A DNA stretch of 60,574 nt, counting the filler, from Hausera hauseri (Eukaryota): NCBI GenBank assembly GCA_046269625.1. It is 11 parts of 11 records of this genome, joined end to end, with 100 filler letters (N's around TTAATTAATTAA, not from the genome) between each part and the next. Parts side by side here need not be neighbours in the genome. Positions count along the whole stretch, not along the records: positions 14,514 to 20,717 come from JBJURY010126428.1; 10 more parts are not named here. One strand, given 5' to 3'. This document shows positions 1 through 47,043 of the stretch, in pieces; positions within the stretch are counted from its first letter, which is position 1; the number at the start of each line of letters is the position of its first letter. The position numbers and the translations under genes were made by a program. A model generated the notes under the pieces. It worked only from the letters and a program-made list of their open reading frames with translations, was not told where the DNA came from and did not search any database.

Positions 1-280
1 TGCTCATCTTTACCATATTTATTACATCTTTGTGATGTATGGAAAAGTTCCCAAACGACCTCCATTAGTTTCTGCTGGATGCCCACTGATACAGATATTA
101 ATAAGACCCACACAGTTTTTGCATAGTATCCATTCTTTACAATATATTGCATTGTGTTCAAACTAACCAAAAGTTTGCAAAACTGTGTTATTGCTTATAT
201 AGTTTACTGACTATATCTCACTTCATATAATTTCTCAAGTCAGTCATTTTCTATCTACTATATTATAAAAGTAATTCATA

Positions 281-740
281 CCTTCCCTCCACATATGCCG
301 TTATTGGTAGCGTAGCTGCTCAAGAAGTCATGAAAGCAGCATCCAGTAAATTCACTCCCATTCAACAATGGCTTTATTTTGATGCTTTTGAATGTCTCCA
401 CAGCATGAATGCTAAAGTTTTACAGAACACCGAAGCGGATTGTAGTTCAAATAGCCGATACTGCGGTCAGGCTTCCGTTTTCGGAAATAAATTTCAAGAG
501 AAATTGTCAAATCTCAATTACTTTGTTGTCGGTGCCAGTGCAATTGGCTGTGAACATTTGAAAAATGATTCCATGATGGGAATCGGTAGTCGTACCAAAG
601 GAAAAATTTTCGTGACTGACATTGACAGCATTGAAAAGTCGAATTTGAATAGACAGTTTTTATTCCGCCCTCAGGACATCCAGAAAATGAAATCAGAAGT
701 CGCCGCTAAAACTGTTGAAACTATGAATCCAGAGATCAAT
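281..740 (+). pseudogene. UBA1: Intronless internal fragment of ubiquitin-activating enzyme E1 (UBA1-like)
   Basis: [34 protein letters not shown]...[11 protein letters not shown]...[16 protein letters not shown]...[32 protein letters not shown]...MNP matches UBA1. GAGAIG is changed to GASAIG. Similarity stops abruptly after MNPEIN. Confidence 0.9.
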
Positions 741-805
741 CCTTTTTGGGATTTTCTGGGCGAAAATTATAAAAATTATTCTGGTATAATTACCGCGAAA
801 ATGGG

Positions 806-864
806 TGTAGTGCCTGAAGGGTGGTTGCACTGGAGGGGTTAGTAGATCGGTGAGGAGATTTTCC
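806..864 (+). repeat. Conserved 5' cap of a Gypsy LTR-like segment (copy 1)
   Basis: TGTAGTGCCTGAAGGGTGGTTGCACTGGAGGGGTTAGTAGATCGGT matches the reverse complement of 57443-57488 at 40/46 positions. It starts with TG and lies upstream of gag. Confidence 0.7.
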
Positions 865-1476: not shown

Positions 1477-1614
1477 ATGGGTACTACTGCTAATGGAGTT
1501 GAAGGAACCCACATTCAAGGTTTTCCTACTTTTGAATACTTCCCTAAAGATTCATATGAAGTTACTGATTACGAAGGCGATATAATTTTAGATGCTTTCA
1601 AAAAGTTCCTTGAC
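1477..1614 (+). pseudogene. C-terminal fragment of a protein disulfide-isomerase thioredoxin domain
   Basis: MGTTANGVEGTHIQGFPTFEYFPKDSYEVTDYEGDIILDAFKKFLD matches the PDI a' end pattern MDxTANEV...I.xFPTL.YFP....DY.G.RTLD.F.KFL. No CGHC is present. Confidence 0.8.
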
Positions 1615-3116
1615 ATGAAAGCAATCGAATTTATCTCAAAAAGGAACGCTTTGGGTCTTACCACACCTGCGGCCGGGTTTACCGATGGAGTTGAACTTGT
1701 CTGGACAATTGGGTGCCGTCGGGGCAGAGCCACATCTTCAGCGACACACTCAACAGCTACAAGACACGAGACAAAATACGTGGGGATACCGCACTACCCA
1801 TCATGTTGCTTATTACCATCATTTTCCATCTACCTTTTTGTAAATAATAAATTGATACATACCGCACATATAACACAATGTATCGACACAACACAATTAT
1901 ATGACCTCATCCATAAAACCACCCTCCTCAATGACTTCTATCTGACTCAATGGATTCATTTTAACTAGCCTCCCACACATTACTTCCTCACAATACTACC
2001 TCTGTATACACATTCACCTTAGAATCCGCGGCGGTATGATATCTTCACCAACCAGTGACATCACAGATAAGGTGACCACAAAACCCAAATTCATTTTCTA
2101 CTATCCAAAATCAAACAATATAACTCCTTAAACCGATCCTGGCTTTTCTTGCAAAACCCCTACAATTACACCCTCACATTGCACCGAATACTTTACAGAC
2201 AATGAAAACTCTAGTAAGACTTGGCTCCACTTCCATCAAATTTGGCTACAGTCCAACGGCATAACAGACTCGTTAACCAAAGCCCATAATCTACTCTATC
2301 TTCTACCAAACTCCATGATGACCTGAATCCATAACTTACTGGACATCTTTCAACACCCTGATTCTTATACGTAATTCTTCAATGCTTTTTAAAACTAACA
2401 GAACCACCAATTGACTCGATAATACAACGATTCTTTAATGAAAACGCAATGGGGATACAAAAACCTAGTGATTTCTTACGCACCTCTTTGGCCCACTTAC
2501 GTACCCTTGGGGCACCAAGGAACACAATCCGGAACTACGTCGCCGTTATTTTCTTAATGCTTTATTCATTCAAATTAGGGCTTTACTGTCGTTGAGGATT
2601 TGACAGCTTTAGATAAACTAGCCGAATTGGCCGATAAAGCACACGAAGTTTTACAAATACAGTCACAGCCAATTATATCAGCCTCAATTACAACCGGCGA
2701 CAATCAACTACATACATCTATAGAGCACCAACTGAACCAGTTACGCGCCGAAAATGCAGCACTACAACATACAATCCATAACATCAATGATAAGCTAAAT
2801 GACCTTTCCTCGCAGCGATATAGTGCTCCCGTTTTTCGTTTCACGAGTTCTGTCTCAAGAAATCGAACACCGTCGCCAGCGCCGGTCGTTTATGTTACTA
2901 TCAACAAATTTAATAACAAAGCTAATAAATGCTGTTTAGGGTGTAGATATTACTCTTCGAATCTACACTCAGATAACATTGTTTGTATCTATCATGCAAA
3001 ATTTGGATCTAATGCTCGGAACTGTATTTCAGGCTGTAACTATAAAACTAACAATAACTACACCATTGATAGACGTTCCAGTTTCTCTAACAATAACCGT
3101 CCTAACTCACCAATCC

Positions 3117-3126
3117 AAAAAACTGA
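3117..3126 (+). promoter_or_regulatory. Putative -1 frameshift slippery site (AAAAAAC + stop) at gag/pol junction
   Basis: AAAAAAC-TGA here; same heptamer plus stop at the gag end at 37355-37364 (+) and 53044-53053 (-). Confidence 0.65.
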
Positions 3127-5294
3127 TTTCGCCGGCAGTATTCATGAGAGTCTGGCAAAGGCATCTTACCTAATTCTTCTTGCCGACACTTTTGCAGTCT
3201 TTGCACTAAAAGCTGTTATCTCTACTACTAGCATTCAATCTATAGACTTTCTCATCGATACCGGTTCAGCTATCTCTTCACTTAAAACAAAACCTTTATA
3301 CACCACCTCCGGTCAACCCCTTCATATTTCCGGAACATGCAAATTATCTTTCACTCCCAAAATTTTACTCATCATTTCATTGGACGTTTACAGTCGTTAA
3401 CGTTCAGACCTCAATACTTGGCTCCGATTTCCTGTCACACTAGAACTTGCTAGTCGATTGTAAACAACGATGCGTGAAATCAAATTCAACTGAAGACTGT
3501 AGCGCAGTAATAGGCAGCATCCTGACGACAGCACAGCCAAGGTAAGTAGGCAATCAATCTTTAAAAAGTTAATACCTCATCCTAATTCTCTTAACTATCA
3601 CGTTTTACCTCTAAGCTTTTAGAGGATAATGTCGATAGTCAGTCGCAGCTCACTGTCGACATTCACGATCTTGTATCTTCAATAAAATCACTAAACAACA
3701 CCACTTCCCCAATAACGTCTTTGACACGACCATTTACATCAGATTCCACTCGATTTCACACCAACAATTAACTAACATTCACTAAGTACTTCTGACATCG
3801 GTTCATCGCCACTTCCAATATTCCGGCAACTACCCGTAAGTTTGCAACAAATCATCAATACTTCTTGTCCTTGTATACTTCAGAAAGATCAGAGTTTTAT
3901 TCCTGTAAACGGCATTTACCATAATATAATTACACGACACCAAAGACCAATTCGTCAAAAGGTTCGTCCATTGTCACCTCGTCAGAGGCAGGCAGTAGAG
4001 GCGGAATTTTTTGAACTCGAACAATCAGGTATTGTTCGTTGATCTAAATCCCCATGGTCTTCGCGTCTCCACGTTGTCCAAAAAAGATGGATCCTTCCGA
4101 CCATGCGGCGATAACAGCCAGCTTAATACTTTAACCATAATGGATGCATGTCCACTACCATTGATCAAAGACATTACATCGGCTTAATTCTACTACAGTT
4201 TATTCAACAATTGATTTAGCCAAAGCATACCACCAAATTCCTGTCGCACTGGAAGACATCGACAAAACTACACTTACCACACCTTTCGGTCTTTATGAGT
4301 ACTTGTACATGCCTTTCGGTCTTCGGAATGCTGCGCAGACTTCAGCGACACGTTGATTCAATCCTTTCAGACTTTCCTTTTGCGCATCCATATATTGACG
4401 ATATCTTGGTTGCTTCTTCTATTAAACAACACGAGGAATATCTACGCTGTATCTTCAAACGACTTAATCAGCGCAATCTACAGATCAATGTAGCAAAATG
4501 TAAGTTCTTTCAAAAACGCGTTAATTTTGTTGGACATATTCTCTCATCAAACGTCCATTCATCTCAGCCTGATCGAGTTGAGACTTAAAAATGTCCAACT
4601 ACCTAGGACAATCACAGAAATGCACATTTTTATTGGTACCTTGCACTTTGTCCACAAATATATTCCATATTGCTCGGAATTCACGGCACCTTTTGCACTC
4701 TTAAGTGGAGGAAAAAACAATAAAATCCAGTGGACACCACAACTGGTTGATAGGTTTGATAGGCTACGCGAAGGACTAAAGACTGTTGAAATACTAGCAT
4801 TTCCTAAGCCTGACGCTGAGCTAATTTTGACTACAGATGCATAAAACATCGCAGTAGGCGCCGTACTACAACAATTGTATAAATGCGAAAACCAGTCTCT
4901 AGAATTCTTTTCTCGAAAAATAATAAAGCCAGAAACTAGTTATTCAACTTTCGATCGGGAACTGCTGGCAATAGTTCTTGCTTTAAGACATTTTTCCCAC
5001 TTACTTACAGCTTGTCATTTTGTTATACAGACTGATCACAAACTGCTGATTAATATAATAGCAATGAAACATTCTTCAAATCGACAAGAACGAAAAATGT
5101 CATATATATCCACATTTAACTTCGACATTAAATACATTGACGGTGTTGACAATCTAGTTGACCATTTCTTATCTAGATCAGTCGGTTCAATCAATTTTTC
5201 ACCAATTTTTATTCAGACAAAACTTCAAGAAAATCAGCTATCTAAAGGTATTCTTAAGTCGTTCAAGTCTCACCACATTGTTGACGGCGTGGCC

Positions 5295-5394
5295 NNNNNN
5301 NNNNNNNNNNNNNNNNNNNNNNNNNNNNNNNNNNNNNNTTAATTAATTAANNNNNNNNNNNNNNNNNNNNNNNNNNNNNNNNNNNNNNNNNNNN
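5295..5394. other. Artificial contig-join spacer
   Basis: N44-TTAATTAATTAA-N44; stops in all six frames. Confidence 0.99.
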
Positions 5395-5900
5395 TATTCA
5401 ACATCAACATCAAAGAGCTGGCTGACGATGGTACCTGACAATATTATATGTCCATATCGTGATCATGGACCGAATTGTGCTTACAAAAATTGCCTACGGC
5501 TTTGTATTTATTATATTTTATGCAAATAAATGTATTTCTTTGTTTCTTCTTTCTTTCTGTAAACATGGTTCGTATTGGTCAGTTAAATAGTTCAAAACTA
5601 GTGTATGTATCATTGTGATATAGACAACATATATCTTTGTTGTGATATGAGAAAATGCTGACAAAGTAAATGTCTATTGTTTACAATGAAAACAAAAGTT
5701 GATATAAATATGGATGTCTTTTCATTTCACTTTGTCCCTAAAATGTCTGCACAACAAACAGCAGCATATACAACAACAACGACAGTTTAATTGTGCCAGG
5801 TTCCAGTAAGTCCATTTCATTTTTACTTTTTGTCCTTAATATGTATTTAGAAAGCAACAGTGAGTCTAAGTAAGGCCCGTAGTCCCTCAGACAGTCCAGA

Positions 5901-6269
5901 GTGTATAACGGGTACAATCTACATTTCCTGCGAACCCCAATTGTAGTGCAATTATCAACGCCGATCAAAATAAACCAGGTAAAATATGGCATGTTGGCAA
6001 AGAAAATAGATGACAGTGAATTTGGTGCATTGGAGGAAACGGCGAAGAAAGTGGACAATGATTTGATGTTGTCCAATGATATTTGGGACACATCCTCGCT
6101 TTTCCTTAAAAGCAAAATGGCGAAAATTGTGCGTGAAAATGGACAAACAGCAGTTTTGCCAACGGAAGGTGTAAAAGGATACCCAAAAATGAAGTTGAAA
6201 GGATATAAGGAACTGTGTGGTATTAAATCGCCAATGTGGAAGTTGGGGAAGTTTACCCTAATGAATTGA
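5901..6269 (+). CDS. Hypothetical protein convergent with pPolB; possible OB-fold ssDNA-binding protein
   Basis: Open frame with beta-strand pattern ending KLKGYK...SPMWKL. Lies tail-to-tail with pPolB. The fold call is an impression only. Confidence 0.3.
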   Translation: MYNGYNLHFLRTPIVVQLSTPIKINQVKYGMLAKKIDDSEFGALEETAKKVDNDLMLSNDIWDTSSLFLKSKMAKIVRENGQTAVLPTEGVKGYPKMKLKGYKELCGIKSPMWKLGKFTLMN

Positions 6270-6570
6270 CTTTAGTTTTGGTGTTTTTAGTTTTTGATTT
6301 GTAATAAAATTTATTTAAGTTTTTGGTGTTGTGTTGTGTTGTGAAAAGTATTTGAGTTTTTGAGTAATATGAGTTTTCTTTCGATAACCCATCTTAAGCC
6401 CTATTTTCTTGTTATAAAACAGAAGACAAAAACTAGTGTACAAATACGTTATTGATCACATGTACAGCAAATAAATGTAAAACAAAGGTCACAAATGTCA
6501 ATGATCTGGCTGGTCTGAATTTTATCTTTGTACTGACGGAACTGTTTTGTTACTGAGTAATGAACGTGTG

Positions 6571-9500
6571 TTATCTCAAACGCCAATGTCCGTACGCCCA
6601 ACTTTTATTTCGCCCCACCCATTTTCTCTTGTCATCGTTGCATGATAAAGCAAACTTTTTATTTGTGATGGTATACAGCTGGTTCTCAATCGATCGAATG
6701 GTTGTTTGAGACAGAACAGCCTTTCCTCCTTCTCTTTCTTCTTCTTCTTCGTGTCCATCATAGACACGGCGATAAGCACCGTGATTTAATTCCGTCTGTA
6801 TCAGCTGGATGCCTTTTGCCCGCAAAAAATCCATTCCCTGTATTGAACCTGGCCTTCACTTTTGTCCTTGAAGCAGCCCACTTTGTTTGTTATCGCGCTA
6901 CTGTACATTGGATGGTTCTGTGGATAGTTGGACGTGTCCAGTACTTCATCTGGCATAATTTGTCGGAGCAGCTGGTCTCTATTAATGTTTTTCAGCTCAA
7001 GAAATAATCTGTCTGTGTCACCGGCAACGATACTGATATCACAGCGCCGCCGCCGCAACCGCCGAACATTTGCTAGTAACGTGCCAAGTCCGATACTGGA
7101 GCTCGTACATTCTCAACTTGCTCAAGTCCAATACCACTTGTCCGATGTTGCTTGGCCGGTCCACTACAACGTCTTCCCGATTTAAAAGCACGGAGACCAA
7201 TCCATCGGCAATGTGCATTGACCGCCTGAACTGAGCCTTGCTGGTGTACGTAATCAGTCGTTTCTCGTTGTTGCACAGGCACACATTGAGCCGCTTCCTC
7301 ATATTTTTCACTGTTTTCCCGTACAATGAATTGTTTTTGAACTTGTAATAGTCCTTTCCAAACTTTGTGCAAGCTGCGGCTCGTTTCCCGGAATTTCCAT
7401 AAATGTACGCCTTGAATATCGGCGCCTGATTGAAGCGGATTGCATGATGCAGCTGTGCGACGCATACACCGAACTGCATTAAAACTACTGCAGACGCCAA
7501 TGAACCACGTAATTCGATTTGGGTTCATGTGTCATAAGCAGTTTCTTTACTTTGAGCCACCGGGTGGATATTGGCTAATTGGTGCGATAGGCAGTTCATA
7601 CAGAAAATCATGCAGCTCATCCGATACCACGAAATCAACTTCCATTAGACAGCCGATTGAGCTACTTTCTCTTGTGTTTGCTGCTGCTGCTAACAGACTG
7701 TCCAGCAATGTATGCAGTTCTTGTTTGTCCATTACCCATTCAAATGAACCGTACGGCAAGGGTTGCGGAAGCGCCCAGCCGGAGAGGTTATGACGTTGTA
7801 TCGTCGTCATCACTGGCTACGTGATGCTTGTTGACAAATGTCATGCCGCCACGAATGCCAACGTCAAATAGTCGATACATTTCCGGATTTTGTAGCAGCT
7901 CTATGTCCCGATCAAGTAACATTAGTGCCAATGCCCAACTTATCCCGGTATTAAGTAAAAGTTGAGCGGTTGAGCTTTAGCCCGAAATGTTTGAAACACA
8001 TCGGCTAATAGGTACACATCGAGCTTTTGATACTGAAGCATGTAGTCCAATATGTTTCTACAACCGAGCTCTGTCCAAGATTTCTGTGCTCTGTGATATT
8101 CATCTTCTGTGATACCTGTCCATCGGGACGGTAATTCCTCTGTTGTCCGGAGTCGCTCATATGACACGGCAAAATCATACGGGAATATGCCTTTGCTGCG
8201 TGCAATATGTTTGGGGAACTGCGTCAGTGTTAGCAGCGCATCCGGCAAGGCATTTACGAGCTTGCCTAGAGACTCATTGAGGAACTGCAATGAATCAAGA
8301 AACCGTACCTGAAATCGGTTTATGCGTGCCGATAGGGACAGGTACTTATCCATCGTTGTTGGGATTATGGATAGCTCCCAGTGCGGAAATACGTTTATGG
8401 CCAATTTCAGAATATGTTGACAGTCATAACCCCTGAAGTTATGAAATATCACTGGCAGGAGTGGCCCCACCCGTCTTGCCAAATTGCATGAGTTGCATGC
8501 TGCTCCCAAGTATCGACCGGTATAATGGTCGTGATCCGGTACGAGCCGTCCCGGTAATATTTTGTGGTACAGGTAACATTCATCGGTAGTTGCAAACGTC
8601 AGGCATTCATCTTCATCTGTCCAAATCAGGAGTTTTGTGCTGTTATTGCGATACTACAGTGCGATTTCCCTTTGTACTATCGTTTTCAAATGCTGCAGGA
8701 AATCACGCACACAGGTCCAGCCGTCAAAGGCGTAATACTGAGGCTGACCGACTGCTTTTATTGGGACAATCATCATACCAACGGCGATTGGAACGTGTTT
8801 TTTATCATACACGTTATACCGTGGTACAATTGCCTCAATAGTGACATATACCACATTTGCTGGACTGTTTATTTTTGACATATCTGTGAACCTGAGTTCC
8901 TTTTTGACGGGAATGATATGCATTGTGGTTCCCGATGAATTTTTTCTGCACAAAGTCTCATGTTTCTCCCGTGATGTTTCCGACCTGAATCCATGCAGAC
9001 ATACAGAACATCATTTACAATTTTTACGCTTTTTGATGAATTGATGGTGATCAATGTTAAGTAGTCTGTCCAATTTGGTTACTGCCACGTAATGAAATTT
9101 ATTTGCTTGCTCCAGTAGCAACAAATTTATTACTGAGTGACCATTTGGATTCCGATTTCGATAGAGTATATCTAAATAAGGGTTTTTGTAAATTTCTTCA
9201 TCCGTCGGTATTTCTACGACTGTGTTGTACCGGAACACGCTGATTGTCAGTGCCGGATTACGCCGTTCAAAAGTCGGAACGAATTTCATTTTTATGGACA
9301 TCCAGCTTTTATCGAAATCCAGTTCGGAAAAATATTTCTGATACTGTCTTTCTACTTCGTCGTATTTCAATACCACCAGAATACTGTAAAGAAAACAGTA
9401 TTCATCGTTGGTATTTTTTACATTCACTACCACCAGAGACTGCTTCAGAGCTACAGGTGTCGGTATGAATTATCGTCCAGACAAATATATCATATCACTC

Positions 9501-9821: not shown

Positions 9822-11166
9822 GGCGAAACCTGTAATCGCAAATCAACTGTCGGAATGGTCCGAATTAGTAACGCAATTAAGCAAATTGGTAGAAGATCTC
9901 AAAACAAAATTTCCCCAAAGCGAGCCAACGGTAAAGAAACAAATAGAAGAAAGTGCGCACAACCTAGGCACGATGTGAATAGAGATAGACATCCGTACTA
10001 AATTCGAAGCGCTACGACGACTAAAATTTATGGAAAAGGAACGAGAAGCATTGATCATGGAGAAAATCTACAGACTGATCGAAGAGACAAACTTTACGGA
10101 AAAACGGAACATGATTTACAATGTAAACTCAAAGTTAAAGATTGTTCAACTCGAAGGAGTACAATACTTAACAGGAAAACCAATCGACGAAATTTCTGCA
10201 CAAAGCATTGAAATCCTGGACATTTGTCCAGAGCATCGAGATAAGTTAATGGTGGCAATAAAGTTTTTACACAAACCTCAAAAATGGATGGCCGGGTCAG
10301 ACCAGAATTTCCATACCAATTTGATAGAAATAGGAAACTACCCACATTCTAGTTTTCAGTAACATAAATTCGTAAAGAAAGTGTCGGATGCAATGGACCC
10401 TGATTCAAAAGTTATAAATGAGGTGTATGAGTTAGCCTATATATTGGTGAAAATGGCAGAAATAAGTGATGAGCAAATAAGGCAATTGATGTCCAAGATA
10501 CAGAAAATAAAAGAAACATGTATTAAGACGAAACAAAGAGCGACAATGTTGGATGAAATAACAAAGAAACTTGAAGTCTATCGAAACAAATATGCTTTTA
10601 CCAAATCAGAGATTAAGAATAAACGCGAATTTGTACAAAGATGTCAAAAGGATGTAATTCTTGAATTGACAGATTATCACCAGAAAGGGCTAGTTTGTCC
10701 GAACGTATTGGGCGAGTTATTGAAAATGATTCAGTATGCATGTGGAAACGGAGTAGGTTTCCGAACTACGCAAATGAAAGAAATACAACTTAGATTAAAG
10801 GAAATTCGGGAAAATATTCAAAGAGCCAATACGGCTTTAGCAGACAACTGACTTCCGTATGCCGGAAACGAACCCGAATGGGATGCAAACTTCGACGAAA
10901 TACTTGCCGGAAAACATATGACTCCAGTACAGCCAAACGAAATAGAAACAGGTTCGCAGGACAGGAGATTCAATGTGTAGATAGTACTGGATTTAGCGCT
11001 AAATGAAAAGGATTTTATTGAATTATTTAACATAAATATTACTGAAAACAAATTAAAACAACTTATTTCAACTTTAACTAAATTGTCCAGTGAGAACACA
11101 ATTTATATCACGGTGCCGAAACTTTTGATAAGGAAATATGTTAAAATTTTAAGGAATAGGCCTGAG

Positions 11167-11391
11167 GTGACGATAAAGGTAATGGTGTTATCCGAATGGA
11201 TAAACGAAAAAGAATGCGAGTTGATTACATATTCCTACGTAAAGAACGTAAGAAAATGGCTAGTAAACAACGGTGGAACGAACGAGTTAAATTACATATT
11301 TTAATTTAGAGGTAGAAGATTCAATGATCTAGAACAACTAATAGACGTAGGGATTATTCCTGACGAAACAAATCGGATAGTGGTCGTGATA
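11167..11391 (+). other. Ubiquitin-like (beta-grasp) domain within family B polyprotein
   Basis: VTIKVMV...ELITYSYVKNVRKWLVNNGG...FRGRRFNDLEQLIDVGIIPDETNRIVVVI aligns by eye with ubiquitin MQIFVKT...[20 protein letters not shown]...[27 protein letters not shown]. Confidence 0.65.
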
Positions 11392-12110
11392 ACTAACGAA
11401 CAAACAAAAGAAGAAGCCACGCGTAAAGCCAAAACAGAACAATGCGTAGGACAAATTATGGGAGTTCAAGACGCTGCAATGTATTTTGAGTATTTACAAA
11501 CAGACGAGGATAAGGAACAATACGACATAAATTTAGTACCAATGAGTAAAATATTTACTAAGGGTCCAAGACCGAAACGCCCAGTAGGTAGTCCTAGAAT
11601 AGTGCGAGAAGAAGTAGATTACAATGGAGAGTTAATTAGAGAATTGAAACAGATGTCGATCCTATCTCTTAGCACAGATAATGAAGAATTAAGCGAGTTA
11701 ATAAAAAATTTAATACGAATTGTAAATTATTCAAGCCTTCGAGGTGATGTATTAGATGATAAAGAAAAGACAATATTCAATGCAGCTAAGATGATGCGAA
11801 GTTCGCGTTTCAAACCATCGAAAAGTAACTTAACCGATGAATCGGTAATCGATAAGATTATGGTAGAAACACCAATGAGGAGTTGAGAAAAGTGTTATTA
11901 TATTTAGCAATCAAGATAAATCCTAATCGAGAGAACGAAATTAATAAGGCTATAAGTTTAGCACGGAAAGCAGCAAGAAGAATGACTTGCAAAGTAAATT
12001 GGACAAGACTGTTTTATAAGGAAGAAAACAAACGAAACAACAACAAACTCGACGACATGTTACGTAACCTGACGACGTCAGCCTTTGGAGGTCGAAAGAA
12101 TGAATCAAAC

Positions 12111-13500
12111 TGGCTGATTAGCTTGCTCACCTTAATCATGCTAATAAAGCACATAGGCGCCGTAACCGTATATGATTGCAATAAGTTTAAATTAAGACAG
12201 AGATATTCTTTAATGGACCTAGAAGTATGCGAGGACGCCAGACCGCACAAATTGGAAACAAGAGAAAAAAGTTACTTCATGCATCAACAGCAAGAATTAG
12301 TATCATTAGACGAAATGGAGTGTATGATGAGACGATCACGTAGCATTTTTCACTGTGGACTAGTACACGGACATTCCTCCATAATCAAGCCAACTACTCC
12401 TCTTATTCCGATGAATGTAGAGCGTCAACATTGCAAACAAGCTAAGGAAACTGGAAGAATACAGTGGGACGGAATGCAATTGGAAATGCAACCCGGAAAA
12501 ATAATCAGAGCGTACAAAGTAGTAGCTGGAAGGCTGGATATGCATAGCGGACATTGTAATGGAGCAGAATACGATACCGGAAAAGGATTAGAATCAAACG
12601 TTGTGGATTTCTACGACTCAGAAATGCGATCACAAAATGTAATGTTCCGTAGTGTCACCAAGTTATACACTGAGAATCAGAAATGCCATTTACAAGACAA
12701 ACCTGTGCTTTTAGAAGTTCGGTTATAATATGGGAACCTCCCTCTGGAAGAAGCTGTAACTTTATCAAAATTAAGTAGTTAAAGTATGATGAAACTACCG
12801 GAAAACAATATGTAGACAAATCGGAGACTAATTCAAGAACACGCGAAGATGTGTCAAAACACCCTATACCTACTCTATTAATCTCGGACCCGCACGGACT
12901 AAAATTTATAAAAAAGAGATGATGACTCGTTGTGATGTAGTAATGTTCGCCACAAACTATGAAGCGTTCTTTGTAGCCGAAATGGAGATAAACGCAAAAA
13001 CCTACAAATTGGAAATGCAGGATGTCCGGATTGAAGATTACCTGAAAAATAGAGATGATTATTTCTACTATAAAGGACAAGTCGGAATAACGGAATTACA
13101 TCGCAAAATGATAATGAATGACTGCAAATTTGATACAAAAATCATGAGAACTAAAATGGCTGTTATATATGCAAACCCAGAACTAGCTTCTCCAATAATT
13201 CCCATAATGGAAGGAATTTTCGGTCGAATTACGGGCGAAGTATTACTTTCCTCTGAATGTGAAAAGAGAGAAGTTCCCATCAACGTAGAGGAAAAACGTT
13301 GTATCCAGGAACTTCATGTTATTTATCAGAATACTCCAAGATTAGCTACACCATTGACGAGAGTGCTGTTGGATAACGCAACACAACCAATCATCTTTAA
13401 GGATTGTAAAGCAAGCTTAGGACAGCCAATGTTTAGACGTAGTGAAACAGACTGGGTTAGTTTACCTAATGGAGGTATTACTGCCGCTCCTAAGAAACGA
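12111..13500 (+). pseudogene. Chuvirus-like (class III, gB-type) envelope glycoprotein ectodomain, TM region deleted
   Basis: Signal-like WLISLLTLIMLIKHIGA then VYDC, SLMDLEVC, FHCGLVHGHSSI, GHCNGAEY, KNRDDYFY, GEVLL..CEKREV...C.QEL.V...LATPLTRVL. This cysteine/motif pattern is typical of chuviral and retroelement-captured glycoproteins. Confidence 0.82.
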
Positions 13501-13789
13501 GATGTTGTATTCACCGAGAGAGCCTAGAAATATTGAAACTAGACCGACAGTTTGGGACAACCCAAAATTACGAACATTCAAACATAATGAACTACATACT
13601 AACAATCGACAGCCGCTAATTAGTACTCACAAAATGGAAGAATTGCACGTAGAAAACAACTAATTATATCCAAACAAAGAGTTAAGACAGTTATCGGAAA
13701 ACATAGTATCCGCCCCAGAAGTAAGAATAAACGGACACAAAATATCAGTGACTAAACATTCGAAAGTAGCATCAAACTGTTTTGGAACC

Positions 13790-14413
13790 GTGATCGAAGG
13801 AAAACCTTTCGCCAAAATCATTATTGAAGATTGGGAAGTTTATGCGCTAACTGATACGGGTTCCGAAATGTCTTACATCAAAAATGATTCAATACCTCAA
13901 ACGCTAAGAGGACAATTATATTCGCCGTCTACGATAGATCCAGTCAGTACCGGAGCTTTTGGCCAAACGTCGAAACCAATGTTTAAATGAAACCCAGAAG
14001 TCCAATTAGCTAGATGAACTGTTCGGCATGAATTTGCAATCATAGAACAATTAACTGATGACATCGTTCTAGGATGCGATTTATTGAAAAGGCTACTAAA
14101 TATAGCAGTCGACTTACAAACAGGAAAACTAAATGAGATTAGACCAAAAAGGGCGTGAAGAACGCTAAGGATAGAAAATTCGGGAAGTGTGGATACCAGT
14201 AGACGAGAACATTCCGCCAAGAACGGAGATAATAATTTACGCACAGATTCAGCAAGATAACTATCAGCCAGTATATTTTGAGCCAAGGGCAACGTTAAAT
14301 CCTTATAAAACACTCAGTAATGTACTACCGAGAGTACACTCCGGTCGTGTACCAATCAGAATAGCTAATAACTCGCTGAGTCCTGTCAAGCTCCATGCTT
14401 ATAATACTTTAGG
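13790..14413 (+). pseudogene. Retropepsin protease and post-protease spacer of family B
   Basis: VYALTDTGSEMSYI, DIVLGCDLL, then IPPRTEIII...GRVPIRIAN. Confidence 0.8.
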
Positions 14414-14513: not shown

Positions 14514-14925
14514 CTTACTTCCACGTTCAACGAGTAAGGACAAGTTGGGCGTAATTTCTTATGTTTTTCTTTGGGTCGATCCTTTATCTGCTCATATTGG
14601 AATTCTCCCTGACAATATATGCATATTATTTGTCCCGTTGAAGTTCGGAATAGTCCGGCATTGGCATATAATTGTGCTAATTCCCCTGGAACAGGTGAAT
14701 TTGGGTATTCTAGGAATGATATTTTTCTGTTCTGTGCATTTCTCATGGAGTTGTCCAATACTGTCATTCTGGAGTAACTTGTCAGTCTCTTAATGAATGC
14801 TGTCGGTCCGAGTTGTCTATTCTGATAATGTAGCAGGTACTGTACTGTATTAGGTTGTGCTGGTCTTGTATATTCGTAGTATCTGGGGGCTTGAAATTTG
14901 ATTTCTCTTATTCTCTGCATTTCAG
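14514..14925 (-). CDS. IAP-like protein with BIR domain, truncated at contig end
   Basis: RKISFLEYP...LAQLYANAGLFRT...CIYC...KHKKLRPTCPY fits the BIR consensus R..SF..WP...LA.AGF...C..C...H....P.C.F. Confidence 0.85.
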
Positions 14926-14962
14926 CTAAAATGTAACCCAATCAAATAAGAACACTTTTTAT

Positions 14963-15270
14963 TCACAAATTTTTTATCGTATAATAGGCATGTTTATATT
15001 GAAATAGTTTATTGTTAGCACGACACACTGGGCATGAGGCTCCAATGGAGAACCATTCCCTCAGACACTGTCTACAAAACTGATGCCTGCAAGGGACCAA
15101 CTCCACTGGGTCTACGGAATATTCGTTTAAACAAATTGTACACTGGGCTCCCACAGGAGTAAAATTCCCACATGGGTTGTATATCGTATATACATTTATT
15201 TCATCTGTCTGGCAAAATGCTGGGAACCCGTGACTCAGTATGGTCGATGAGTTCACAATACGGGGTAAAC
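14963..15270 (-). CDS. RING finger (C3HC4) protein cassette
   Basis: CTICLNEY...LVPCRHQFCRQCLREW...CPVCR. No ATG in frame; starts after TTTTCTTAAG. Confidence 0.88.
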
Positions 15271-15325
15271 CTTAAGAAAATAAAATAAACAATTTGTTAC
15301 ACATAATTTTATTGATAATTTAATT

Positions 15326-15786
15326 TTAATCTATGTCCAATATTGTATAGGGTTGTGGGTTTCTCCATGCTTCCGGCCAGCTGCCGTCGTCCTCATCGAT
15401 CACTAGCACTATAGAGGATTGTCTATTCAAGTTCAAGTATGTGATCAGTCCTTCTGTGATATAAAAGTCCACCGTTTCCAGGCAGTAGGGGCATAATTGA
15501 CAACACGCCAAATATTCAAGGATGCATGACTGGCAAAATACATGCCTACACGATAGGGTGGCCAAGTCCTCAGCTACTAGTTTGGAGCACACCCAACAGA
15601 ATGTGCAATTTCTTCTGCAACAGGGGCAATTGTTATGTTCCCCCAGCCAGATGTTGATACAGGAACTGCAGTAGCTATGCTTGCATGGTAGTGTGGTCCT
15701 TTCCTCCATCATTTCTTCAAGGCAGATGGGGCATTTTTCGGGTTCCATTCTGTCTTCATTTCCACTTCCATTTCTGTTTCCGTTTC
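15326..15786 (-). CDS. Tandem double RING finger protein cassette
   Basis: CPICLEEM...LPCKHSYCSSCI..W...CPCCR followed by CWVC...LSCRHVFCQSCI...CPYC. Confidence 0.9.
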
Positions 15787-15990
15787 CTTAAATGGTAATA
15801 GTTTATTTCAAGTATTTTCTATATTCATTTACTAACAATAATAAGTCCTTCTAATAAAACGACTTCTATATGTTAAAATTTATCATACTATAATCATTCA
15901 CAGATCTACGATTCCACCTGTTAGGGCACATATGGGACACAAAACCAAATTTCGCGAGGTACAATAATCAATTTACTTTCATTACATATT

Positions 15991-16226
15991 TCATAAATTA
16001 ATTAATTTGTCAATTTCTTCCAAGTCATTCCACGATAGGGCGCAGATAGGACATAGTAAACAACAATCCTCATCCATGGTCATTAAACCCAGATTAGTTT
16101 CCTCCCTGCAATGTCCGCACTCAAATGAATCCTCTGGTTGTTTCAATTTCTCCACCAAATAACATAGGGGGCAGAGAATCTCCTCTTCATCCCAAGTTTC
16201 TGGAAATCTCTTGCAGATAATACAAC
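15991..16226 (-). CDS. Small Cys-rich Zn-finger cassette (four CxxC)
   Basis: CIIC, CPLC, CGHC, CPIC; no ATG before the fingers. Confidence 0.65.
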
Positions 16227-16393
16227 CTAAAACCAATATGATTCAATTGACTTAAGCTTCAAATTTTTCTCCTCCTGGTACTCAGTAATTTACAATTTAG
16301 TTATCTATATTGTTATTCTTCTATTTATTCTCATTACTTTATTCCCATTACTTATCATCAACAAACAACCAGAATCAGACGTTTATTATCGAT

Positions 16394-16680
16394 TTAAATA
16401 GGCATGATTATAAGTCCGTTGGGCCCGACTACATATAATGGGGTTGGATCTATTATCCTATCTTCTTGCTCTTCTTCCTCCTCGTCAAAAATCACCACTG
16501 TAGTAACTCCCAGGCAGTTGTAACTGCTCACCTTTCTCCTACAAAAGGGACAGTTTTGTTTCTTCGACAACCATTGATCGGCACACTTGGTACACATAAT
16601 ATGTGTGCACCGGAGTAAAGCGTACCGCAATCCAAGGGCATTGTAGCATATTGCACATTTTGTGGTCCCAGTTCTGACAT
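16394..16680 (-). CDS. RING finger (C3HC4) protein cassette with acidic tail
   Basis: CAICYNAL...LLRCTHIMCTKCADQW...CPFCR, then DEEEEEQED. Confidence 0.88.
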
Positions 16681-18496
16681 CTGATAAAATATAAATAATA
16701 TCCACTTGCTAAGAATAATAATTCTACAAATTACATCAAAACATTTAACCCTCGAGCTTATCCTCACTCGGGGCACCAGTTTATATGTTGGGTGTACAGG
16801 GGCTGTTAACAACCTTAAGCAGTACTCAACATATAAATCGTTTACAAGACAATGATCCATTTGGAAATGATTCGTGCTACCTGAAGGTTAATTTCGTGAG
16901 TTTGTCGATCTTCTCCCTGCTATATCTATTCCGATGTTTGTTACTTTAAGGAGTTCTCATTGTTGCAGTGCTTATTTAGCGTTAGGCAAATTCTGATAAA
17001 GTTCCTAATAATTATAATGTTAGTACCGGTCATCGCCGCTCTAAATTCACCCAGACAATAATTTATCAGTTAAATTCATTTTTTCTAACCCAAAAGACCA
17101 TTCCCAAAATTCGCGCGAGCATGCCCTCACAATCGACTTGATAGGGTTGAATGAACAGCTACCATACTTCAAACCAGCAAAACTACATGGTTAAGTTGAT
17201 ACACAATTAAATTCTATGGGAAGGTAACGATCATTTCAATTATATAGTCACAACCCAATAAAAGGAAAGGAAAGGAAAGGAAACAATCATTGGGAAATCC
17301 TTATTACATCATCATAAAATAGTGAAACTGAATATTAAACAGACGATAATTATTGATCAATAAAACTGAATATTATTCATATAATAAATATACAGACTTG
17401 GTATGTTACCTGTTCGCAGTAGTATTACAATCCTTATTAATCTACGCCAACCCCATTTAATAAAATACCAATCATAAATTATCAATCGATACTGTTTAAT
17501 AACTAATATATTAACTATTGTATTCAAGTTTTAAAAGAAATCAAATGTAAAACTTTTAGAATAGTGTGTGGTATATTTCTCGATTCTAATCAAGGATACG
17601 TATTTATATATATAGTTGTATAATGAAAAATATTATATTTAAATTTTATTTTTCTTGGGACTATATGACGGCACTTATTTATTATTTCTATTTTTTCTTT
17701 TCACGTTAGCTCGACTTCGGCTCGATACTTGAGAGATGATTTCGACTACCTCTTGAGAGACCATATCCGTACTGGAGTTTCCTCTATCCACCATTTCCAC
17801 TGTATGAACCTCCATTATTTCGATAGTCAGTACCGTTAGTAATCTCTAAGCTCAAAGCCATCTACAAAATTGCTCGTATAAATACACCGTACCTCCTAGA
17901 ATTCCAAACCGTATTGTATATATTCATTTCACGACAAATAAACACATATATATGTACTCGAAACAACATTATTCAGTATAATTCACATAGGAGACTACTT
18001 TACTCAAAACACCATTTACCCATCACAACGCAATTTCGATTGGCACCAATGCATCGGAATTTCCACTCGCATCAACTGTAGTTCAATCCACATTTCATCT
18101 ATGCGGTATCGTAATCTTCTTGTTTAGATTTTCAGAGATCGTCCCTTGGACATATTTTCGAATACCGAATACTAAATTCATTTAATCAATACACTCACCG
18201 TTTAACCAACGCCCGGGGATAAAATGTTTCATTCTATTTATCGATGCTAATTTTTATTGTATAACAAATATATATACACAAAACATTCATCATAAAATAA
18301 TAAAATTGCAAATTTATAAATTTAAGTAACATATACCGTGGACTTCAATTTCGTTATCATCAGGTGAATTATCGTAACTGGCCATGAATTTATCGTAGCA
18401 GAATGTATCTAAGGCTAAAACCTTTTTCGAAGTATTACTTGTAAAGTAGTAGAAAAAGTATGGTTATTTCATTTATGACTGATGTGTTTATATACT

Positions 18497-18741
18497 ATTT
18501 GTGCTGATTTCAAATTCTATTTTTAAAATTCACTGACGTCAATCTAGTTTTATTTTGTGTTGATTTCGAAATTGAAAATCATTGACGTCATTCGGTGGTT
18601 TTGTACTACACATTCGTTCAATGTTCAATTTTACAATTTGACCGCATTTTGTGTTGATTTCGAAATTGAAAATCATTGACGTCATTCGGTGGTTTTATAC
18701 TACACAATTGTTCAGTGTTTAATTTATAAAATTTGACCTCA
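18497..18741. repeat. Tandem repeat, 94-bp period (2 copies plus a partial)
   Basis: ATTTTGTGTTGATTTCGAAATTGAAAATCATTGACGTCATTCGGTGGTTTT at 18552 and 18646; degenerate unit at 18497. Confidence 0.85.
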
Positions 18742-19159
18742 TATTACGCATTTTACTTTTAATTATACGTTACTCAAATTCAATATTGCCATCTGTTTTA
18801 TCTTCAGATATGTCTAACAATTCATGGCTAACAATTCATTTACATTTTTCAGAAAATGAAAATGTCCATCATGTGGGACTTAACATTAAACACAAGAATA
18901 AAGTTTATTAAAACTGCAAATTTTTTATAACAAATTGATAACAATTAATTGTCATAAAATATCCACAAATTAGTCAAAGTAAGTAATCAAAATGTTTGTT
19001 ATAATGGATCAAATGAATTATAAAATGTTGTTGTTCGTCGGCGTCGGTACTGTTTGGGAAGTCTGGAAGTCTTCGGTGCTGTTTTGGGTCGACACTGTTC
19101 AGTAGTCTCAAGGCAACACACTGTTCAGGGAGTCTCAACGTCAGCGACTTGATTTAAAT

Positions 19160-19767
19160 CTATCTCGTCGCTGATTCGACAGGATCTCCTTCGTTTCCTT
19201 GTGCACTTTGTAGTAGGCCTTCAGAATACAATCGGTGATCATTCAGGAACACACGATAATCTGGATAACGCTCGGTATTTGGATACCTTTCACGATATAC
19301 TGAGACTGCAGTATTGGCATTATATCTACATTCCCCATAAATGAGATGCATGTTAGCATATTCTTGTGCAGTGTACGTATTCGGCATCGTAATAAAACAC
19401 TAATAAAATGTTTGTATGGGATTGGTTTGAATCTTTGAAACTTTGAATCTAAATTGCGCAAAATACAAAAAGTAGTGTGTTTTTTAAACAGTAGTAAACA
19501 CACTCGAATATTTAAACAAACACATTTTACACAGTCCAATGTGGGCAATCATGCTCCATAAAAACAATAATAAAAATACAAATTATTTAAATCTCTAGTC
19601 ACATTACCGGCGAGGTTCCGTGAGGTTACTGACTTTTTATATTTTTATTAAAATGGATGGTATTTGAGAACCGTAGCTTATAGGACCCTATTTTTTTTCG
19701 TTACGAGGTCGGCATAAGTAGGCCTTTCTCCTATTGTCAGCTTATCGTCACGTTCTGGGACACCTTG
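19160..19767 (-). mobile_element. Tc1/mariner-superfamily remnant (DUF4817-like HTH transposase N-terminus plus one TIR)
   Basis: MPNTYTAQEYANMHLIYGECRYNA..A...YRERYP..RYPDYRVF; terminus TA|CAAGGTGTCCCAGAA at 19767. Confidence 0.75.
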
Positions 19768-19775
19768 TATATATA

Positions 19776-20390
19776 CAGTCATATTTATCTAATCGGGTTT
19801 TTCAGGAACTTTAAAGTCCTTGCCAGATTAGAAAATCCGGATTACGCAATTGTCAGTAAAAAAAAGAGAAAGTTTTGACTAAGTTAATATCAAAGTCATT
19901 AACCTCACCTTTCAATTTATTTTATACAAAGTTACACACATTTCAAACATTAAATTACACAATGTTAAATGACTTACATATGTACAAACAAAAAATTAAG
20001 ACCTATTCTGTTATTCTGTTACAACCGCGAAAAAATCACTTATGTGAGTTTGTATTGGTGCTTTATTCATTTCTGCAATCACACCATTCTGAAGAAGTTT
20101 AATAGCATTGACGTGACTCTCACTGAATCCACTATGATTTTGAAGAATGAAGTATAAAGTAGTCAAAGCTTAAGTGGCTTCCTTGAACGTTGAAACAATT
20201 GGTTTATGTGATCCATCAAGCTCAAAATCAGTGTCAATTTCTACATATGCTGACCAAACGCATACAAAATTTCATTATTTGAAACACCTGGTAAAGTGGA
20301 TAATGCTTCTATGTAGTTCTGAAAGGTGATATCTTATGGAACTTGTAAAAAGACATGAAGTCGGTCAAAATGTTTACAACGTTATCATTC
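19776..20390 (-). mobile_element. pogo/Tigger transposon 3' remnant
   Basis: Minus frame STFKEAT*ALTTL...IKLLQNGVIAEMNKAPIQTHISDFF has the C-terminal PIP-box typical of pogo transposases; TA|CAGT terminus at 19776. Confidence 0.6.
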
Positions 20391-20717
20391 GCCTAGAATT
20401 GAACTACTGGCGGGTCTTGAGATTGTACAGTGAAACAGTAGATAGATAGGAGTACATGAGGCCAACCCACTTGATGTGGTTCAGGGATGAGTAATGGGTG
20501 AGAGAAAATGATGCACACATGAACTGTTAATAGGGTAGAGATTGGAGACATACAGTTACGAAAGTGATACACACAAGCACATGTAATATGGGGATCCAAA
20601 ATGCTTTTAAAAATTTTAATTTTGCGCCAAAAATTTTTGTCTAAATTTGGCGATAAATTTTTTGTTTAAATGTCATGAAAACGCATTACTGGAATTCTTG
20701 AAATTATATGCATTTAC

Positions 20718-43723: not shown

Positions 43724-44585
43724 CTGGGTTCCATTTAAACATTGGTTTTGACATTTGGCCAAAAGCTCCTGTACTACCCGGAACTTTCGTGGACAGCGGA
43801 TATACCTGTCCTCTTAACGTCTGAGGTTTTGAATAATTTTTGATGTACGACATCTCGGAACCCGTATCGATTAACGCATAAACTTCCCAATCTTCAATAA
43901 CGATTTTGGCAAAAGGTATTCCTTCGATCACTGTTCCGAAACAGTTTGATGATACTTTCGAACGTTTAGTCGCTGATATTTTGTGTCCGTTTATTCTTAC
44001 TTCAGGGGCGGATACTATGTTTTCCGATATCTGTCTTAATTATTCGTTTGGATATATTTCGTTGTTTTCTACGTGCATTTCTTCCATTTCATGAGTGCTA
44101 TTTAGCGGCTCCCCATTGTTAGTATGTAGTTTAGTATGTTGGAAGGTTTTTAATCTTGGGTTGTCCCAAACCGTCGATCTACTTTCGATATTCTTAGGTT
44201 CTCTCGGTGAATGCAATATTTTGGGATCAACTGCGGATTGCCGCTAACACATTTTCCGTAAAATCCCATATAGTTTTGTTCCATCATAAGGATTTTCTAC
44301 ATTAATTGTTCTTTTATAGATTTCCGTTTTATATGAGCTCATGGATCGTTTGTCACAATCTTCGTAAAATAGAGCGGTAGGGAGTAACATGGGTAATGGC
44401 GCTTTAACTACAGAGTACACCTTGTGTCTATTTATCCCTGAGAATGCTTCTCCTCTTTTAGGCTCGTCATCATCTGAATTATTTCTTCGTATAATAGGTT
44501 TTGTAGACTTCCGCTTCCGTAGGAATAACGGTCTCCCTCTTCGTTTACAATTATAGTAATCGACATGACGTTCTACGTCCGCTTT

Positions 44586-46325
44586 CTATCTACTCTTTTC
44601 GTATGCTTTTAAAAATTTTCCAAAAGGCGTTATAATTGCAGTCAGAATTTTATATGAAAATCCGGTTAGTGTAAATATTTCGTATTCGTTTATCACGGCT
44701 TGGATAACTGCCTTAATCATTTGTATCAAAAAATATATCTCTAAAAATCCTGATGCGGCTTGTCCAAAATTTAAAAATCTTCCCCAGATTTTGTAGAGTA
44801 TTTCGGTTGTCACTCTCTGATAGTGGATTACGCCTAGTAATGATTCTCATTTAGCCTGATATCGTGTGTCGTCTACTACAGATGACATCGCTCGATTTAG
44901 CTCATGCTTTCGTTGTCGTAGGAAGGCGAGAAATTGTCTGAAGGCCTCAATTTCCGTCGGTATGTATATACCTTTTGACGAGGTGTCTTGAAATTTACCG
45001 TCTGTGATACCCTTCGCGATATTCGTCCCTGCTAGCTTGTTACGAACATCAGTGATACCTCCATTAGGTAAACTAACCCAGTCTGTTTCGTTATGTCTAA
45101 ACATTGGCTCTCCTAAGCTTGCTTTACAATCCTTAAGAATGGTCGGTTGTGTCGCGTTATCCAACAACACTCTCGTCAATGGCGTAGCTAATCTCGGAGT
45201 ATTCTGATAAATAACAGGAAGTTCTTGGATGCAACGTTTTTCTTCTACGTTGATGGGAACTTCTCTCTTTTCACATTAATAGGTTAGTAATACTTCGCCA
45301 ATTTGCAGTCATTTATTATCATTTTATGATATAACTCCGTTATTCTGACTTGTCTTTATAGTAAAAATAATCATCCCCATTTTTCAGGTAGTCCTCAATC
45401 CAAACATCTTGCGTTTCCAATTTGTAGGTCCTCGCATTTATCTCCGTTTCGGCTACAAAGAATGCTTCATAGTTCGTGGCGAACATTACTACATCGCAAC
45501 GAGTCATCATTTCTGTTTTATAAATTTTAATCCACGCGGGTCTGAGATTAATATAGTCGGTGTAGGGTGTTCCGATACATCTTCGCATGTTCTCGTCTTA
45601 GTCTCCGATTTGTCTACATATCGTTTTGCGGTAGTTTCATTAAATTTTAACTCTTTAATTTTGATAAAGTTACAGCTTCTTTCAGAGGGAGATTACCATA
45701 TTATGACCGAACTTCTAAAATCACAGGTCCCGTCTTGTAAATGGCATTTCTGATTCTCTGTGTATAACTATGTGACACTATGGAACATTACCTTTTGTGA
45801 TCGCATTTCTGATTCGTAGAAATCCACAACTACCACGTTTGGTTCTAATCCCTTTCTGTTATCGTATTCTGCTCCATTACAATGTCCGGTATGATTATTC
45901 AGCCTTCCAGCTACTACTTTGTATGCTCTGATTATCTTTCCTGGTTCATTTCTAATTGCATACTGTCCCATTGTACCCTTCCATTCTCTTTGGCTTGTTT
46001 GCCATGTTGACGTTCTAAATTCATTGGAATTATCGGAGTAGTTGGCTTAATTATGGAGGAATGTCCGTGCATTAGGCCACAGTGGAAAATGCTACGGGAT
46101 CGCCTCAACATGCATTCCATTCCGTATAACGATATCAGTTTTTGTTGTTGATACAGGAAGTAACTTTTCCCTCTTGTTTCTAGTTTGTGCGGTCTGGCAT
46201 CCTCGCATACTTCTAGATCAATTAAGGAATATCTCTGTCCTAATTTAAACTTATCGCAATCATAGACGGCTACCGCACTTATATGCTTTATTAACATCAG
46301 TAAGGTAAGCAATCTAATTAGCCAA
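44586..46325 (-). pseudogene. Chuvirus-like envelope glycoprotein with C-terminal membrane segments
   Basis: AVYDC...FHCGLMHGHSSI...KGIY...WGRFLNFGQAASGFLEIYFLIQMIKAVIQAVIN..EIFTLTGFSYKILTAII. Confidence 0.85.
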
Positions 46326-47043
46326 TTTGATTCATTTTTCCGACCTCCAACGTCTGACGTCGTCAGACTACGTAACATATCGTCGAGTTTATTGTTGTTT
46401 CGTTTGTCTTCTTCCTTGTCAAGTAGTCTCGTCCAATTTACTTCGCAAGGCATTCTTCTTGCTGCTCTTCGTGCTAAGCTTATAGCCCGATTGATTTCAT
46501 TCTATCGATTAGGATTTATTTTGATAGCTATGTATAGCAATACTTTTCTCAATTCTTCATTCGTGTTTTCTGCCATGATCTTTTCAATTACCGATTCATC
46601 AGTTAAATTGCTTTTCGATAGTTTAAAACGCGAACTTCGCATCATTTGGGTGCATCGAAATTTATCTTTTCTTTATCATTTAACATATCTCCTCGAAAAC
46701 TAGAATAATTCATAATTCGTATTAAATTTTTCCTTAACCTGCTTAATTCCTCATTCTCGGTGTTAAGGGTTGGAATCGACATCTGCCTCAATTCTCTAAT
46801 TGACTCTCCATTGTAATCCACCTCTTCTCGCACTTTTCTAGGTATGCTTACTGGGCGTTTCGGTCTTGGACCCTTAGTGGTTGCTTTGCTTAGTGGTACT
46901 AAATTTATGTCGTATTGTTCTTTATCTTCGTCCATTTGCAAATACTCAAAATGTAGTGCAGCGTCTCGGACTCCCATGATCTATCCTACGCATTGTTCTG
47001 TTTTGGCTCTACGTGTAGCTTCTTCTTTTGTCTCTTCCTTAGC

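Follow-up and report, generated by a model that had tools for sequence, protein, structure and literature searches.

The cassette array

The window analysed here is a stretch of 60,574 nt from Hausera hauseri (assembly GCA_046269625.1), made up of 11 separate contigs with N linkers between them, and the element in question, an array of five zinc-finger open reading frames (ORFs), lies on one of these, the 6.2 kb contig JBJURY010126428.1 (positions 14,514–20,717 of the window). The ORFs stand in a row on the minus strand, as do all features of this contig described below unless stated otherwise, in the order RING, four CxxC pairs, double RING, RING and BIR, the last belonging to the IAP (inhibitor-of-apoptosis) type. 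Stop codons end four of the five; the fifth (BIR) begins after a stop, and the contig breaks off inside it at 14,514. All five are intact, the BIR ORF as far as the contig goes, and their zinc ligands are complete. Pfam matches above the cut-off were obtained for the RING, double-RING, RING and BIR ORFs (PF13639/PF00097 for RING and PF00653 for BIR), and each of the four RING domains spread across three ORFs has eight zinc ligands in C3HC4 spacing. An earlier reading, made from the sequence alone, had described a six-cassette RING/zinc-finger/IAP array. Its second to sixth cassettes are the five ORFs above, here numbered 1–5, whereas its first (16,528–16,881) was rejected: this is an open frame running over the end of a presumed long terminal repeat (LTR) and a primer-binding site (PBS), both discussed below, with no finger and no Pfam match.

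Cassette 1 (16,394–16,681; acceptor 16,681; 94 codons) encodes a C3HC4 RING and an acidic tail with a motif like a SUMO-interacting motif (SIM); its first in-frame Met is codon 28 and its first CxxC is at codon 8, so no Met precedes the RING. Cassette 2 (15,991–16,227; acceptor 16,227; 77 codons) carries four CxxC pairs resembling a double zinc ribbon, with the first CxxC at codon 1 and the first Met at codon 48. This ORF has no family in Pfam and no match in PHROGs, its Atlas matches are unnamed with recognition below threshold, and its single-sequence structure model (predicted local distance difference test score of 47.6) was too poor for a structure search. Cassette 3 (15,326–15,787; acceptor 15,787; 152 codons) is a tandem double RING with a SIM-like acidic tail and its own Met at codon 13. 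Cassette 4 (14,963–15,271; acceptor 15,271; 101 codons) has a C-terminal C3HC4 RING and no Met anywhere in frame, and cassette 5 (14,514–14,926; acceptor 14,926), the IAP-type ORF truncated by the contig end, has its own Met at codon 2 and an intact BIR (CxxC-x16-H-x6-C). Comparison of the Met and CxxC codons thus bears out the earlier claim that three cassettes, those behind acceptors 16,681, 16,227 and 15,271, lack a Met before the finger.

Cassettes 1 and 3 are paralogous (26% over a stretch of 93 aa that takes in the tail; E = 1e-9). A pattern of hydrophobic followed by acidic residues, as in a SIM with an acidic stretch, matches these two cassettes only and does so in their shared tail, the motif being short. 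RNF4 and an equine herpesvirus RING are among the generic RING matches. Cassettes 1 and 3 are possibly SUMO-targeted ligases, as predicted from their sequences. Immediately behind the cassette 1 RING comes a strong phase-0 donor (16,531; rank 3 of 357). If used, it would drop the SIM-like tail; the acceptors downstream are phase 1, however.

Acceptors, reading phase and polyadenylation signals

Six pyrimidine-rich AGs, chosen by eye, had been reported on the minus strand, each two bases before the first full codon. All are present, and in six of six, the five cassettes included, the longest open frame begins two bases further on. Splice-site scoring was run with an approximate home-made matrix, the matrix and the spacer limits having been drawn after the data were seen; by this measure the chosen AG is the best usable one before the finger in all five cassettes. 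When the spacers were shuffled 20,000 times, 94 shuffles showed the same phase, 37 reached or exceeded the score sum and none did both; shuffling the spacer together with the 5' exon gave 82, 4 and 0, respectively, in 20,000.

As a polyadenylation (polyA) signal, AATAAA is present in four of the four spacers (14,958–16,387), at 16,387, 16,343 and 16,329 in the first and at 15,807, 15,313 and 14,963 in the others, which includes every site listed earlier, and shuffles reproduce this in 5 of 20,000 cases; like the shuffles for phase and score, this test was designed once the data had been seen. The last three sites lie 20–42 nt before the next acceptor, so cleavage after one cassette would compete with splicing into the next. 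Two spacers had been described as too short for promoters; the two shortest measure 57 and 39 nt, stop included.

Copies of the element and coding constraint before the first Met

Copies were taken as contigs of two public sequencing runs, X1 and X2, aligned to the array contig. In all, 3,096 contigs from X1 and 396 from X2 align, mostly 85–99% alike, and the element thus exists in many copies, many of them diverged, as an LTR retrotransposon does. Depths given below are summed over aligned contigs and do not equate to copy number. Joints in these contigs are not splice-like and are uninformative on expression.

Among the copy differences listed (40 of 694 rows in one comparison and 40 of 128 in another), 12 distinct places fall inside the five ORFs, ten of them at third codon positions (binomial p = 5e-4). 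The bias holds upstream of the first in-frame Met, where seven of eight listed differences are at third positions. Judged by this pattern, the stretches of cassettes 1 and 2 that precede the first Met look coding; being under coding constraint, they need a start codon from elsewhere.

The presumed LTR end and primer-binding site

The presumed 3' end of a 5' LTR (16,786–16,796) ends in CA at 16,787–16,786. Other copies part from this sequence 10–20 nt upstream of the CA, with loose ends at 16,796 and 16,808. Seven nucleotides after the CA is a PBS-like 19-mer (16,760–16,778) that begins with TGG and is complementary to the tRNA-Met 3' end including the CCA. It matches 16 of 17 nt of the tRNA-Met PBS in Table 2 of PMC1084362 and has one mismatch to each of two Met_CAU 12-mers (PMC13524379, supplement 1); a match of this kind is expected by chance at ∼2e-4. 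The summed depth in the bin containing it (16,743–16,803) is 19,346, with 75 and 122 in the adjoining bins. The 19-mer sits 80 nt upstream of the first real cassette, and joints and contigs of other copies tie it to the first RING in both X1 and X2. The AG at 16,881, which preceded the rejected frame, is missing from a more abundant copy: an X1 contig with a depth of 28.7 joins 16,840 to 17,003.

Because a tRNA-Met PBS stands behind a CA end and is joined to the first RING in other copies, the likely identity of the element, on its sequence features, is a large LTR retrotransposon, of which the array would form the 5' accessory region. The sequence upstream of the PBS would be the LTR, and gag-pol would lie downstream of the IAP, beyond the contig. 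The home in an invertebrate DNA virus or Polinton, suggested by the sequence-only reading, is not supported in view of these same features. From ∼170 at the first RING the summed depth climbs to ∼8,000 at the IAP (8,278 in X1), which suggests that the IAP end is common and that the cassettes towards the PBS are subfamily-specific.

Several observations belong to this region. A short high-depth segment (17,500–17,675, no strand assigned), with a summed depth of up to 7,800 in X1 and a TATA-like run near 17,607, may be a conserved LTR core or a separate small repeat. Upstream of the PBS, a 56-codon frame with a basic C-terminus (17,678–17,845) is followed by two AATAAA motifs (17,683 and 17,650) and is possibly another decayed cassette or LTR sequence. 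One X2 joint links 16,779 to 15,065, that is, the PBS side via 30 other letters to the RING of cassette 4, suggesting an altered cassette order or a nested insertion in another organism. Seventeen matches to the PBS pattern in prokaryote genomes were taken as chance. Rfam gave only a sub-threshold snoRNA match and ARAGORN found no tRNA gene.

Candidate leader exons and donors

The best-scoring donor among the 357 GTs of the contig is at 18,198 and has an ATG-open frame in phase 1 only. It closes candidate leader exon B (18,199–18,246), which is 48 nt long and open, with its own ATG at 18,232 (11 codons plus one base). Upstream, candidate leader exon A (18,337–18,385) has an ATG and 16 codons plus one base, and its weak phase-1 donor (18,336) is separated by a 90 nt intron from the AG at 18,247. 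Both exons are called with low confidence. Exons A and B could together make up a phase-1 leader, with exon B as its second part, placed behind a tandem repeat and a TATA box: two 80 nt direct-repeat copies with a spacing of 94 nt (18,552–18,725) each contain TGACGTCA, which we take to be like a cAMP response element, and are followed by a TATA-like box near 18,494. The repeats and the box together are a candidate U3 enhancer/promoter. One paralogous contig keeps 18,183–18,359.

Two further donors were considered. The candidate at 17,409 is in phase 1 with an open frame, without an ATG. Closer to the array, an AT-rich leader or intron (16,682–16,759) contains a weak phase-1 GT at 16,749, which stands 69 nt ahead of the first acceptor. 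In the interval from the PBS to this GT, a start codon is present in copies that account for 128 of 164 of the depth in X1 and 21 of 25 in X2; the copy studied here is without one.

Relatives of the IAP

A phmmer search with the BIR ORF gave 293 matches, four of which cover its N-terminal part; word-based protein searches returned no relative of the BIR ORF or of the double-RING ORF. The IAP falls in an unnamed single-ORF family, in which P0001 (403 aa, with a BIR and a C-terminal RING) is 42% identical over residues 2–136. The relatives are stand-alone BIR...RING proteins of about 370–400 aa, with the RING end present in P0001 and P0005. A conserved T-rich AG also stands immediately ahead of the IAP in two metagenomic relatives, L003 and L004; L003 further has, upstream of its IAP, a membrane-protein-like ORF and an AATAAA, which repeats the layout of ORF, polyA signal, acceptor and IAP. 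That ORF (L003 1–1845, plus strand) is a decayed type I membrane-protein-like frame with a weak fn3 match, a Thr-rich stalk and a transmembrane helix, and its end is also found in L004.

No longer relative reaching gag or pol was found in the metagenome, viral-contig and genome-contig scans. An initial scan of metagenomes and a protein-level scan of genome contigs returned no matches, and the viral-contig scans gave no relevant locus: L001 is a 25-aa RING match only and L002 is a phage tail region.

Proposed expression of the array and alternative readings

We consider it rather probable, from the arrangement of the sequence, that a single phase-1 coding leader is cis-spliced from an LTR promoter transcript onto alternative terminal exons of the 5' accessory region. 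Transcription would start from the LTR promoter; one short phase-1 coding leader would be cis-spliced to whichever of the five acceptors is chosen; and the spliced RNA would end at the polyA signal of the chosen cassette, with only unspliced read-through RNA serving as the genome. The products would be host-manipulating RING E3 ligases (two of them predicted to be SUMO-targeted), a further zinc finger and an apoptosis inhibitor, and the predicted SUMO-targeted ligases would plausibly be aimed at SUMO-dependent silencing. The use of the AGs, the choice of donor and all product activities are here inferred from sequence. The earlier proposal of a shared first exon joined to alternative terminal exons survives in part: the common phase, the polyA signals, the coding constraint and a top-ranked phase-1 candidate donor all fit it.

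A number of observations weigh against the leader model. Of the candidate donors, 18,198 is the strongest and 16,749 the closest. The former lies 1.4 kb upstream of the PBS in DNA with a summed depth of ∼8–20, compared with 1,500–8,000 at the downstream cassettes, and because of this low depth it cannot, in this form, lead most copies. Its phase-1 ATG match is weak alone, since such a frame occurs at ∼3 of the 14 best upstream donors. The 48 nt exon also carries a 1 nt insertion, upstream of its ATG, in one paralogous contig. Closest to the array, the GT at 16,749 matches the donor consensus poorly. The acceptors are only moderately strong (ranks 10, 14, 27, 6 and 49 of the 323 AGs in the contig, by the approximate matrix) and a simple branch-point motif precedes just one of the five. 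In L003 and L004 the acceptor is in another phase, with an ATG within a few codons, and the phase is therefore not conserved across the IAP family. None of the 12 listed differences comes from cassettes 3 and 4, and the SIM-like motifs are short and were found by pattern matching. As to the LTR element, neither gag, pol nor a second LTR was found on the 6.2 kb contig, which ends inside the IAP, so that a 3' LTR would lie beyond it; a search upstream on the contig gave no 5' inverted end to match the presumed LTR end.

The same LTR element might have its ORFs read with no coding leader in common. The RNAs would be unspliced or cut short at a polyA site, and reading would depend on leaky scanning, non-AUG starts or weak internal promoters, the AGs being incidental or part of non-coding leaders. 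The RNAs of the MDG1 group are a precedent, having two unspliced upstream short ORFs (sORFs) and one internal polyA site (PMC11952523), and both the own Met of two of the five cassettes and the ATG directly after the acceptor in L003 and L004 would suit such a scheme. It meets with difficulty at the three cassettes with no Met before the finger, where the third-position bias is nonetheless present; the 39 and 57 nt spacers leave scant room for promoters, and the shared phase in five of five is not explained. We judge it improbable. Another possibility is an operon in which spliced-leader (SL) trans-splicing acts at every AG and is coupled to polyadenylation of the cistron before it. The short spacers, each with an AATAAA close ahead of a T-rich AG, do look like those of SL operons, and flatworm SLs end in an ATG that is usable as a start (PMC12582326). 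A terminal ATG would, however, read frames of 50, 27, 25, 5 and 5 codons from the AGs, none of which is the finger frame, and an SL without ATG cannot start the three Met-less cassettes; trans-splicing seems very unlikely.

Assigning the array, as a spliced unit with several products, to a Polinton, an adintovirus or another endogenous DNA virus is, in our estimate, just as hard to sustain. Homologues of IAP and small CXXC 'Oncoid' ORFs do occur in adintoviruses (PMC8502044), and a protein-primed DNA polymerase B (pPolB) is encoded on another contig of the window. That contig is unlinked to the array contig by blastn, several copies connect the PBS behind a CA end with the first RING, the viral-contig scans gave no relevant locus, and pPolB, integrase, capsid genes and terminal inverted repeats were all not found on the 6.2 kb partial contig. 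Little more can be said for a non-autonomous or host-derived repeat, with captured RING/IAP gene pieces stacked behind an LTR end and the AGs as left-over host exon boundaries. Its appeal is that the cassette content varies among copies, with the depth dropping from the IAP towards the PBS; but the five ORFs are intact with complete zinc ligands, most of the copy differences are synonymous, the paralogous cassettes 1 and 3 have a tail in common, and the IAP belongs to a distinct single-ORF family. We give this origin a slim chance.

The shared-leader reading can be taken further, to an expandable 5' panel of at least five alternative terminal exons in which two SUMO-targeted ligases dismantle transposon silencing and the IAP keeps the host cell alive. 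This extended version is tentative, and we would sooner doubt it than assert it. If it were true, new E3 ligases could join the panel directly behind the PBS and would need neither a promoter nor a start codon.

Other contigs of the window

The other ten contigs carry mostly animal-type transposon pieces (Ty3/gypsy, BEL/Pao, a pPolB and two gag-glycoprotein-protease elements), and blastn found no similarity between them and the array contig. This transposon content points to a host that is probably an invertebrate. Two decayed, ∼85% alike copies of one retroelement (9,822–14,413, plus strand, and 43,724–49,051, minus strand) have the gene order coiled-coil ORF, Monjiviricetes-type fusion glycoprotein (PF24664) and then protease. 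In these copies env stands before pol, as in Burro and the GAG-ENV-POL errantiviruses. That the array belongs to the same element as these two gag-glycoprotein-protease contigs is not claimed: they are A-rich like the IAP (A 0.39 each), yet there is no sequence link. The pPolB (7,039–9,469, minus strand) is broken up and accompanied by an endonuclease VII-like domain, and is Polinton-like, on its separate contig. On yet another contig, a ThiF/E1-like fragment (231–842, plus strand) lies 5' of a Ty3/gypsy gag-protease region, as a host gene relic or ubiquitin-pathway cargo. The array contig itself also holds a relic of a transposon with a DUF4817 helix-turn-helix (19,068–19,895, no strand assigned), upstream of the presumed LTR.

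Comparison with known systems

Ordinary ORF calling misses three of the five ORFs because they have no start before the finger, and this may explain why the RING cassette that was searched had no database relatives. To our knowledge, LTR retrotransposons are usually seen as gag-pol(-env) elements that make no more than one spliced product. If true, a panel of five splice choices that also has internal polyA signals and lies upstream of gag would amount to gene expression of complex-virus grade in a transposon, and would raise the question of how the full-length genomic RNA escapes its own splice and polyA sites. The RING proteins with SIM-like motifs would be candidate transposon-encoded counter-defence proteins, and the element would represent a second IAP-carrying lineage beside Burro1. 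A literature search, mostly at the abstract level and with most of the subscription literature outside its scope, gave no multi-cassette common-leader unit in an LTR retrotransposon.

The closest cargo is that of Burro/GYPSM1, giant planarian Ty3/gypsy elements with RING, BIR and other ubiquitin or apoptosis modules and with accessory ORFs upstream of the main ORF (PMC6431247); the B-IAP of Burro is reported to shield stem cells from apoptosis (PMC13465017). The array element is likewise probably of LTR type and has BIR and RING cargo (Pfam matches above the cut-off), but its contig does not include gag-env-pol. It differs in that its five short ORFs stand apart from one another and come with acceptors and polyA signals of their own, whereas most such domains of Burro lie inside a polyprotein of about 4,900 aa (PMC6431247). 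The two are likened by features only, and the array lacks one defining feature of Burro, the polyprotein.

In the MDG1 group (412, Mdg1 and Stalker), sORF1 and sORF2 lie between the PBS and gag and an internal polyA site gives a short transcript; these sORFs have their own starts, show no splicing in long reads, and encode a nuclear protein and a FAST-like fusogen (PMC11952523). Small accessory ORFs after the PBS and internal polyA signals are common to both, but those of the array encode RING, CxxC and BIR proteins and nothing like the transmembrane FAST-like sORF2. In errantiviruses of the ZAM and Beagle subclade, splicing supplies env with its start, joining it to a short exon that lies upstream of gag and encodes a peptide (bioRxiv 10.1101/2023.08.03.551782). 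As described there, env has one acceptor and is one product, downstream of pol and ending in the 3' LTR; the array has five upstream acceptors and internal polyA signals. Adintoviruses and Polintons share small CXXC ORFs and an IAP as mobile-element cargo (PMC8502044); they are DNA elements without a PBS, and the string 'splic' never occurs in the main text of that paper.

The SIM-like tails of cassettes 1 and 3 call to mind other proteins. Viral and cellular SUMO-targeted ligases such as herpesvirus ICP0 and RNF4 combine a RING with a short hydrophobic-acidic motif, and the two cassettes pair a RING with a SIM-like motif, their ligase activity and SUMO binding being predicted from sequence. 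For the array as a whole, the nearest parallels in expression are complex retroviruses and adenovirus early units, in which one leader can be joined to any of a number of alternative 3' splice sites. In retroviruses the accessory mRNAs have the polyA site of the 3' LTR in common, whereas the cassettes of the array each have their own signal; with this difference, and by analogy, we think there is a better than even chance that the array works like the accessory unit of a complex virus.

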